A stretch of 64,000 nt of DNA from assembly GCF_044324875.1 (NCBI RefSeq), contig NZ_CP172185.1; one strand, written 5' to 3'. A model generated the notes under the pieces. It was not told the DNA's origin. It did not search any database and worked only from the letters and a program-made list of their open reading frames with translations. Origin of the DNA: Escherichia coli. Lineage in GTDB: Bacteria > Pseudomonadota > Gammaproteobacteria > Enterobacterales > Enterobacteriaceae. Shown here piece by piece: positions 56,001 through 56,639 of this stretch (within the stretch, counting starts at the first letter, position 1; each line of letters starts with the position of its first letter). The position numbers and the translations under genes were made by a program.

Positions 56001-56177
56001 GTGAAACAAAGCGAGTTCAGACGTTGGCTCGAATCTCAGGGCGTCAATGTAGCAAATGGCAGCAACCATTTAAAACTCAGGTTTCACGGGAGGCGCAGTG
56101 TCATGCCGCGTCACCCCAGCGAAGAGATTAAAGAACCATTACGTAAAGCCATTCTGAAACAACTCGGTTTGAGTTAA
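56001..56177 (+). CDS. hicA: type II toxin HicA (mRNA interferase), GTG start
   Basis: Hand-translated 58-codon ORF from GTG at 56001: (M)KQSEFRRWLESQGVNVANGSNHLKLRFHGRRSVMPRHPSEEIKEPLRKAILKQLGLS; adjacent to hicB. Confidence 0.8.
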   Translation: MKQSEFRRWLESQGVNVANGSNHLKLRFHGRRSVMPRHPSEEIKEPLRKAILKQLGLS

Positions 56178-56222
56178 TCGCCAATTAAAAAGGTTAATGA
56201 CATGCGAGAGACAGTCGAAATT

Positions 56223-56639
56223 ATGCGTTATCCCGTCACTCTTACACCCGCGCCGGAAGGCGGTTATATGGTTTCTTTTGTGGATATCCCTGAAGCATTG
56301 ACGCAGGGCGAAACTGTCGCTGAAGCGATGGAAGCGGCAAAAGATGCTTTACTGACCGCATTTGATTTTTATTTTGAAGATAACGAGCTTATCCCTTTAC
56401 CTTCGCCATTAAATAGTCACGATCACTTTATTGAAGTGCCTTTGAGCGTCGCCTCTAAGGTATTGCTGTTAAATGCTTTTTTACAGTCAGACATCACTCA
56501 GCAAGAATTAGCCAGGCGAATTGGCAAACCTAAACAGGAAATTACTCGCTTATTTAACTTGCACCATGCGACAAAAATCGACGCCGTCCAGCTTGCGGCT
56601 AAGGCGCTTGGCAAAGAGTTATCGCTGGTGATGGTTTGA
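56223..56639 (+). CDS. hicB: type II antitoxin HicB
   Basis: Start MRYPVTLTPAPEGGYMVSFVDIPEA within ORF 56202..56639; C-terminal HTH-like region. Confidence 0.85.
   Translation: MRYPVTLTPAPEGGYMVSFVDIPEALTQGETVAEAMEAAKDALLTAFDFYFEDNELIPLPSPLNSHDHFIEVPLSVASKVLLLNAFLQSDITQQELARRIGKPKQEITRLFNLHHATKIDAVQLAAKALGKELSLVMV

Follow-up and report, generated by a model that had tools for sequence, protein, structure and literature searches.

What does the short segment at positions 56001-56639 of this 64,000-nucleotide stretch of Escherichia coli DNA (contig NZ_CP172185.1; the whole stretch is referred to below as the window) encode, and from which codons are its genes translated? The segment is almost certainly the chromosomal hicAB type II toxin-antitoxin operon of E. 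coli, located at its usual site and with both genes intact. This is an already known and well-studied system, as the original prediction had recognized in assigning the locus a low interest. Two genes make up the segment.

56001-56177, + strand: hicA, 58 amino acids, GTG start, TAA stop (open reading frame (ORF) list, Pfam, PDB 6HPB chain A, RefSeq coordinates)
56223-56639, + strand: hicB as annotated, 138 amino acids, ATG start, TGA stop (Pfam, PDB 6HPB chain B, RefSeq coordinates)

The genes lie in toxin-first order on the same strand, with 45 nucleotides between the TAA of hicA and the hicB ATG at 56223. HicA matched the Pfam family HicA_toxin (PF07927) with 32.7 bits, residues 5-57 covering profile positions 3-58 of 58, and HicB matched HicB_lk_antitox in its N-terminal part (32.8 bits) and HTH_3 in its C-terminal part (32.7 bits); the respective cut-offs are 27, 27 and 23 bits. 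Against the K-12 proteins in PDB entry 6HPB, 55 of 58 HicA residues were identical to chain A (E=1.3e-33) and 137 of 138 HicB residues to chain B (E=3e-86). Matches were also obtained to PHROG 353, labeled 'toxin', for HicA (E=2e-11) and to PHROG 497 for HicB (E=3e-35). The stretch NGSNH23LKLRF aligns residue for residue with 6HPB chain A and retains His23, so far the one residue of HicA known to act in catalysis (PMC8138530). At 95 % identity with K-12 HicA, whose structure is solved, the window protein would be expected to adopt the same double-stranded RNA-binding domain-like alpha-beta-beta-beta-alpha fold. An intact, canonical HicA of 58 residues had been predicted, and the ORF list, Pfam, PDB and RefSeq coordinates all bear this out. 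For HicB, the predicted intact protein of 138 residues agrees with the annotated length, but the same ORF also permits a protein of 145 residues beginning at an ATG at 56202, which is considered below.

The genomic setting was compared using two neighbors as synteny markers.

55549-55779, - strand: yncJ, divergent upstream neighbor (ORF list; RefSeq K-12 and Ecol_316)
56718-58124, + strand: ydcR, a GntR/aminotransferase-like regulator gene, downstream neighbor (ORF list; RefSeq annotation)

The order rlhA - yncJ - hicA - hicB - ydcR was found in the window, in the ORF list as well as in the RefSeq annotation of K-12 and Ecol_316, and RefSeq places hicA and hicB at exactly matching coordinates in both strains. 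In Citrobacter, ydcR is also found downstream of hicAB. A 921-nucleotide region containing the locus was matched in 5414 of 5426 complete E. coli genomes. The alignment to K-12 hicAB that had been proposed as a check gave 97.1 % DNA identity to MG1655 over this region (27 nucleotide differences) together with the matching coordinates, and strain Ecol_316 differed at a single base (99.9 % identity). Relative to K-12, hicA carries six synonymous and three non-synonymous differences (D16N, C40S, D41E), and hicB ten synonymous and one non-synonymous (E90D in the 138-residue numbering); the hicB stop codon is TGA in the window and TAA in K-12. The substitutions are thus mostly synonymous, as expected under purifying selection, and both genes look intact and appear to be subject to such selection.

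The start of hicA was predicted to be GTG for the reason that an overlapping ATG is immediately followed by an in-frame TGA. The conclusion is correct, but the reasoning is imprecise. The ATG at 55999 (55999 mod 3 = 1) is out of frame with hicA (56001 mod 3 = 0) and therefore could not serve as its start codon whether or not a TGA followed. The hicA frame is instead closed upstream by a TGA at 55974-55976, and the eight codons between this stop and the GTG (TAT ACT CAG CGG CAG GGA GGC GAT) include no ATG, GTG, TTG, CTG or ATH, so that GTG 56001 is the only possible start of a full-length HicA. The next in-frame ATG is codon 35. The region reads GGAGG-CG-ATGTGA and contains a Shine-Dalgarno (SD) sequence.

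55992-55996, + strand: SD sequence of hicA, GGAGG, 4 nucleotides before the GTG and 2 before the ATG (from the sequence)

With aligned spacing as defined in PMC9841429, this SD is at distance 12 from GTG 56001 and 10 from ATG 55999. The same start is indicated by comparison with relatives. Thirty homologues recovered by protein search share the N-terminus MKQSEFRRWLE with few single substitutions and no extension, the exception being an over-extended gene call in Citrobacter koseri whose reading GGAV-KQSEF places a GTG at the same position. (A scan of contigs with a degenerate pattern for NHLKLRFHGRR returned only E. coli and Escherichia sp. E1V33; it was too strict for orthologues, and the protein search was used in its place.) DNA of 16 further loci was then taken out to compare start contexts, giving 7 Escherichia and 12 non-Escherichia loci in all. 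The GTG start was present in all seven Escherichia loci (the window, K-12, Ecol_316, 24AR0142, E69, E1V33 and E2748) and in 11 of the 12 others, namely those of three Citrobacter species, Superficieibacter, Salmonella, two Serratia, Cronobacter, Yersinia, an Arsenophonus plasmid and a Variovorax-like contig; Pseudidiomarina alone has ATG. The start codon is always followed by A, and a GGAGG-type SD stands about 4 nucleotides upstream in most loci, with a run of G in its place in C. enshiensis and the Arsenophonus plasmid.

Upstream of hicA, two candidate regulatory elements were noted.

55951-55968, no strand: perfect palindrome GTAAACA-ATAA-TGTTTAC, candidate HicB operator (hicO), 50 nucleotides upstream of the GTG (conservation)
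55974-55982, + strand: candidate extended -10 element of promoter P2, TGaTATACT (read by eye; TATAAT at the same place in Citrobacter)

The palindrome stands at equal distance (-49 to -51) in 9 of the 11 loci compared. Its two arms carry compensatory changes in C. freundii (GTAAGCA/TGCTTAC) and Superficieibacter (GTAATCA/TGATTAC), and related TAAACA-N4-TGTTTA repeats were found in Yersinia, S. marcescens and the Variovorax-like contig. Perfect palindromes of the form 7-N4-7 number only seven across all 64 kb of the window. In PMC10865869, hicO is described as an inverted repeat at P2. Such an operator requires an inverted repeat close to the hicA start, and the 7-N4-7 repeat, with its position kept, provides one. 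The palindrome at 55951-55968 is therefore likely to be the HicB operator, and probably the same element as the published hicO. The -10 element of P2 may plausibly be placed at 55977-55982, with a transcription start near 55989 at the 5' edge of the hicA SD, which would fit the description of P2 in the literature. The TGA at 55974-55976 within the candidate extended -10 doubles as the stop that closes the hicA frame.

Insofar as the allele behaves like that of K-12, the working of the locus may be outlined. HicA would be a ribosome-independent, mRNA-cleaving toxin of 58 residues with His23 as its catalytic residue, as known for K-12 HicA, whose expression also arrests growth. The N-terminal domain of HicB would cover the HicA active site, as in the K-12 structure described in the literature, and its C-terminal helix-turn-helix would dimerize and bind the inverted repeat upstream of hicA. 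RNase activity and its neutralization would accordingly be predicted for this allele by analogy. The account of the two K-12 promoters is that of Turnbull and Gerdes 2017 as relayed in papers that summarize it. There, P1 is an upstream promoter of the CRP-S/Sxy type that gives both proteins. P2 is repressed by HicB at the inverted repeat hicO and derepressed by excess HicA, and its mRNA is truncated, with a weakened toxin ribosome-binding site, so that only HicB is made. By analogy, a CRP/Sxy-dependent P1 transcript in the window would yield both proteins, and P2, adjoining the hicA ribosome-binding site, would be repressed by HicB at the palindrome, released by an excess of HicA, and would give a shortened mRNA that produces HicB only. 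Gene identity, integrity, start codon, synteny and the conservation of the GTG start and palindrome follow directly from the present comparisons; the promoter logic of this allele would be that of K-12.

Several points set limits to this reading of the locus. The replacements D16N, C40S and D41E in HicA and E90D in HicB distinguish the proteins from those of K-12; homologues from other E. coli and from Citrobacter carry identical residues or similar ones. Neither protein was matched by any NCBIfam or PADLOC model, which reflects the content of these libraries and not an absence of the family. For P1, a pattern search for CRP-S sites across the whole window gave 267 matches where shuffled sequence predicted 304, and a local consensus search of 55780-56000 did not locate a P1/CRP-S site or any match to the CRP-N consensus. 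Within that interval, TGCGA-N6-TCGCA with at most three mismatches gave one weak match at 55782, next to yncJ. The region upstream of hicA is nearly identical to that of K-12, and the P1 site is therefore presumably present. Finally, the operator and the -10 element stand where we infer them to be. A consensus scan for promoters and terminators detected neither a terminator nor any promoter ahead of hicA, and did not call the candidate P2 -10. Taken together, the data hold nothing that contradicts the identification as hicAB. No RNA structure is claimed for the E. coli locus: predicted folding of the hicA leader (long and short versions) and of the hicA-hicB spacer was no better than that of shuffled sequences (z = -0.97, +0.65 and +2.1, respectively), and an Rfam scan returned nothing relevant at the locus, only one spurious snoRNA match. 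The same scan gave a sub-threshold match to naRNA4 at 55509-55548 (33 bits against a gathering threshold of 59.5), between rlhA and yncJ, that is probably a REP-type repeat.

Other interpretations concern the reading frames that overlap the start of hicA, the start of hicB and the condition of the locus as a whole. The relevant features are as follows.

55999-56004, + strand: out-of-frame ATG-TGA start-stop, ATGTGA (sequence and frame arithmetic)
56190-56222, + strand: alternative hicB initiation region, with AAGG at 56190-56193, an 8-nucleotide spacer, ATG 56202 and seven codons (MRETVEI) leading to a protein of 145 residues (ORF list)

The ATG at 55999-56001 is directly followed by TGA at 56002-56004 and has one base in common with the GTG at 56001-56003. 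This start-stop could constitute a functional mini-cistron, in which ribosomes initiate at AUG 55999, stop, and re-initiate at, or compete with, the GUG, tuning the amount of toxin. The ATGTG context itself is already cataloged: in K-12, hicA is one of 18 genes annotated as starting at the GTG of an ATGTG, listed with SD GGAGG, spacing 12 and no predicted ambiguity (PMC9841429, Table 2). The same study showed in reporters that AUGUGA supports RF2-dependent termination-reinitiation at the 3' GUG when the SD favors the 5' codon, and identified narQ (GUGUGA) as a native example. As in narQ and the reporter, the annotated hicA start is the 3' GUG of an NUGUGA in which the 5' codon is followed by UGA. 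The spacing differs. In narQ it is 14/16, placing the 5' codon nearer the optimum so that expression depends on termination-reinitiation, and ribosomes are directed to the 5' codon at spacings from about 12/14 to 14/16; in hicA it is 10/12, which favors the GUG, since 12 is nearer the optimum of 13-14 than is the 10 of the AUG. Start-stops elsewhere in E. coli modestly lower expression of their host genes (bioRxiv 10.1101/520783), but hicA is not mentioned in the main text of that Ribo-RET study. The ATGTGA is invariant in the seven Escherichia loci and, among the loci compared, confined to them. Citrobacter (CGCGGTGAAG), Serratia (GAGAAGTGAAG), Salmonella, Cronobacter, Yersinia and others lack it; the Salmonella and Cronobacter prophages have an in-frame GTG where Escherichia has the ATG, and in Arsenophonus the ATG is in frame with hicA. 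The start-stop is thus not a conserved feature of the family. Moreover, the window contains 32 copies of ATGTGA, about as many as the 31 that chance predicts, and 'AT' would precede a GTG start by chance about once in 16. A regulatory role for the start-stop is consequently possible but unlikely. A second overlapping frame, an ORF of 56 codons at 55961-56131, was considered as a gene in its own right. It has a strong SD (GGAGGT at 55947-55952) followed by an 8-nucleotide spacer and an ATG, and is uninterrupted in K-12 and Ecol_316 as well as in the window. Every difference between K-12 and the window that is synonymous in hicA nevertheless changes the protein from this ORF, its length varies (54, 56 or 64 residues), RefSeq does not annotate it at this locus, and its ATG lies within the operator palindrome, a sequence that is under a separate constraint. 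Given the non-synonymous pattern and the variable length, the ORF was rejected as a gene, and we find it scarcely credible that it is one. Initiation at ATG 55961 may occur on P1 transcripts. The neighboring gene rlhA, with an annotated GTG start at 53496, is also found in an ATGTGA context (window 53494-53499). Two of the 18 cataloged K-12 genes, rlhA and hicA, therefore lie 2.5 kb apart, probably by coincidence.

The start of hicB is more evenly balanced. HicB might be made mainly from ATG 56202, as a protein of 145 residues, instead of from the annotated ATG 56223, or from both. ATG 56202 has the only SD-like element, the AAGG at 56190-56193, with an aligned spacing of 13 that is optimal, and no complement to the anti-SD of at least 4 nucleotides precedes ATG 56223. 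An upstream ATG with AAGG or GAGG, exactly seven codons before MRYP, is also found in Escherichia sp. E2748, C. koseri, C. enshiensis and C. freundii; the intervening 18 nucleotides diverge freely without acquiring stops or frameshifts (MRETVEI, MRETVKI in E2748, MRALPET, MRESQII and MRAFTEI), although this sample amounts to five independent sequences. One gene caller selected 145 residues, and HicB of that length, plus a tag, has been crystallized (PDB 6U0I). On the other hand, RefSeq and the 6HPB structure use 138 residues, and the Pfam HicB domain begins at residue 10 of the longer form, two residues after Met8. The start at MRYP is common to all HicB homologues compared, and those of prophages and the plasmid begin there with no in-frame upstream start at the corresponding position and mostly with no SD either. 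The longer product is a serious candidate, but the annotated start is somewhat favored. The remaining question is whether the locus might be a decaying, non-functional remnant, as it is in many other E. coli strains. Only 4217 of the 5414 matching genomes cover the whole region and only 3442 contain the central hicA segment, so that hicA is not intact in about 36 % of complete E. coli genomes. A deletion of 445 bp, found in about 1197 of the 5414 (coverage about 52 % of the region), corresponds in E. coli A4 to window positions 55956-56400 and takes out hicA together with most of the palindrome and roughly the first 60 codons of hicB. A deletion of 22 bp in E. coli 24AR0142 (window 56118-56139) frameshifts hicA and leaves hicB intact as an orphan antitoxin; this or a similar hicA lesion accounts, by subtraction of 3442 from 4217, for about 775 more. 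In Escherichia sp. E1V33, a 1-nucleotide deletion (CACCC-AGCGATGAG) frameshifts the toxin, and the start context and hicB are intact. The window shows none of this damage. Both of its ORFs are full length, the SD, start codon, His23, stop codons and palindrome are intact, and the changes relative to K-12 are mostly synonymous; decay is thus a very improbable description of this copy. The allele class of the window is a minority one, with 32 genomes at least 99 % identical over the region, and its diverged central hicA segment is common to about 206 genomes.

With an intact hicAB operon as the preferred reading, the locus is a textbook case of a toxin-antitoxin system whose structures have been solved and whose regulatory circuit has been described, and in itself matters little. 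The follow-up confirms the annotation, corrects the reasoning for the GTG start and adds minor comparative points on HicAB expression, among them the near-universal GTG-A start in this HicA clade and the prophage 'moron' origin of close homologues. A broader proposal would be that the GTG-A start is a selected, clade-wide brake on HicA translation, with the AUG-UGA as a second layer in Escherichia and the SD-led upstream hicB start raising antitoxin levels in Escherichia and Citrobacter. If true, the weak GTG start would hold HicA below HicB despite the toxin-first order, and the Escherichia AUG-UGA, sharing the hicA SD, would divert or recycle ribosomes at the toxin start. This combination is a conjecture that we consider to have a small chance of being correct.

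Some further features of the window were recorded. The hicA and hicB genes share a reading frame, and the TAA and the 45 nucleotides after it contain no further stop (56175-56223), so that readthrough would fuse the two proteins. A readthrough fusion was rejected, because the spacer in relatives is 43-50 nucleotides and out of frame. The opposite strand of the hicAB locus holds only short chance ORFs. Elsewhere, two identical direct copies of 768 bp lie 23.7 kb apart, at 15664-16431 and 39337-40104. The ORFs within them resemble IS1 InsA/InsB, and IS1 itself is 768 bp long. The first copy abuts, and appears to interrupt, the end of a repeat-rich ORF of 1408 codons (11442-15668).

The known system to which the locus must be compared is hicAB of K-12, which has reportedly been described by Jorgensen et al. 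2009, Turnbull and Gerdes 2017 and Manav et al. 2019. The K-12 operon (yncN/ydcQ; PDB 6HPB/6HPC) is alike in locus, neighbors, gene order, gene lengths and GTG start. Its SD and ATGTGA context are identical to those of the window, and its palindrome is identical but for one spacer base; the two alleles differ in the three HicA replacements and one HicB replacement given above and in the hicB stop codon. Escherichia and Citrobacter carry hicAB at a fixed chromosomal site adjoining ydcR. Close HicA homologues (74-84 % identity) were found in prophages of Salmonella, Cronobacter, Serratia and Yersinia and on the Arsenophonus plasmid. PHROG 353 and 497 file HicA and HicB as 'moron' toxin-antitoxin families, and 16 phage records encode relatives. 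The prophage and plasmid systems share the GTG-A start, mostly a GGAGG-type SD, upstream TAAACA-N4-TGTTTA palindromes and the order hicA then hicB. They differ in having neither the ATG-TGA start-stop nor the upstream hicB ATG, and the prophage loci and the Arsenophonus plasmid contain a GC-rich hairpin (for example CCAGCCCTCCGGGGCTGG) in the hicA-hicB spacer that E. coli lacks. In the enterobacterial prophages, two palindromes frame a promoter of near-consensus TTGACA / TATAAT type. Three of the four prophage loci, those of Salmonella, Cronobacter and Yersinia, lie between a late (Q-type) antiterminator gene and holin/lysis genes; in the Serratia fonticola prophage, hicAB follows the small-terminase gene. 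In Serratia marcescens, a gene beside the hicAB homologue matches Pfam KwaA, of the Kiwa defense system, which hints at a defense-island context. A parallel in regulation is provided by toxTA of Haemophilus influenzae, which is also toxin-first and combines a CRP-S/Sxy promoter with an antitoxin-repressed downstream promoter yielding antitoxin only (PMC6957337), but is built from unrelated protein families with a toxin of the RelE/ParE type.

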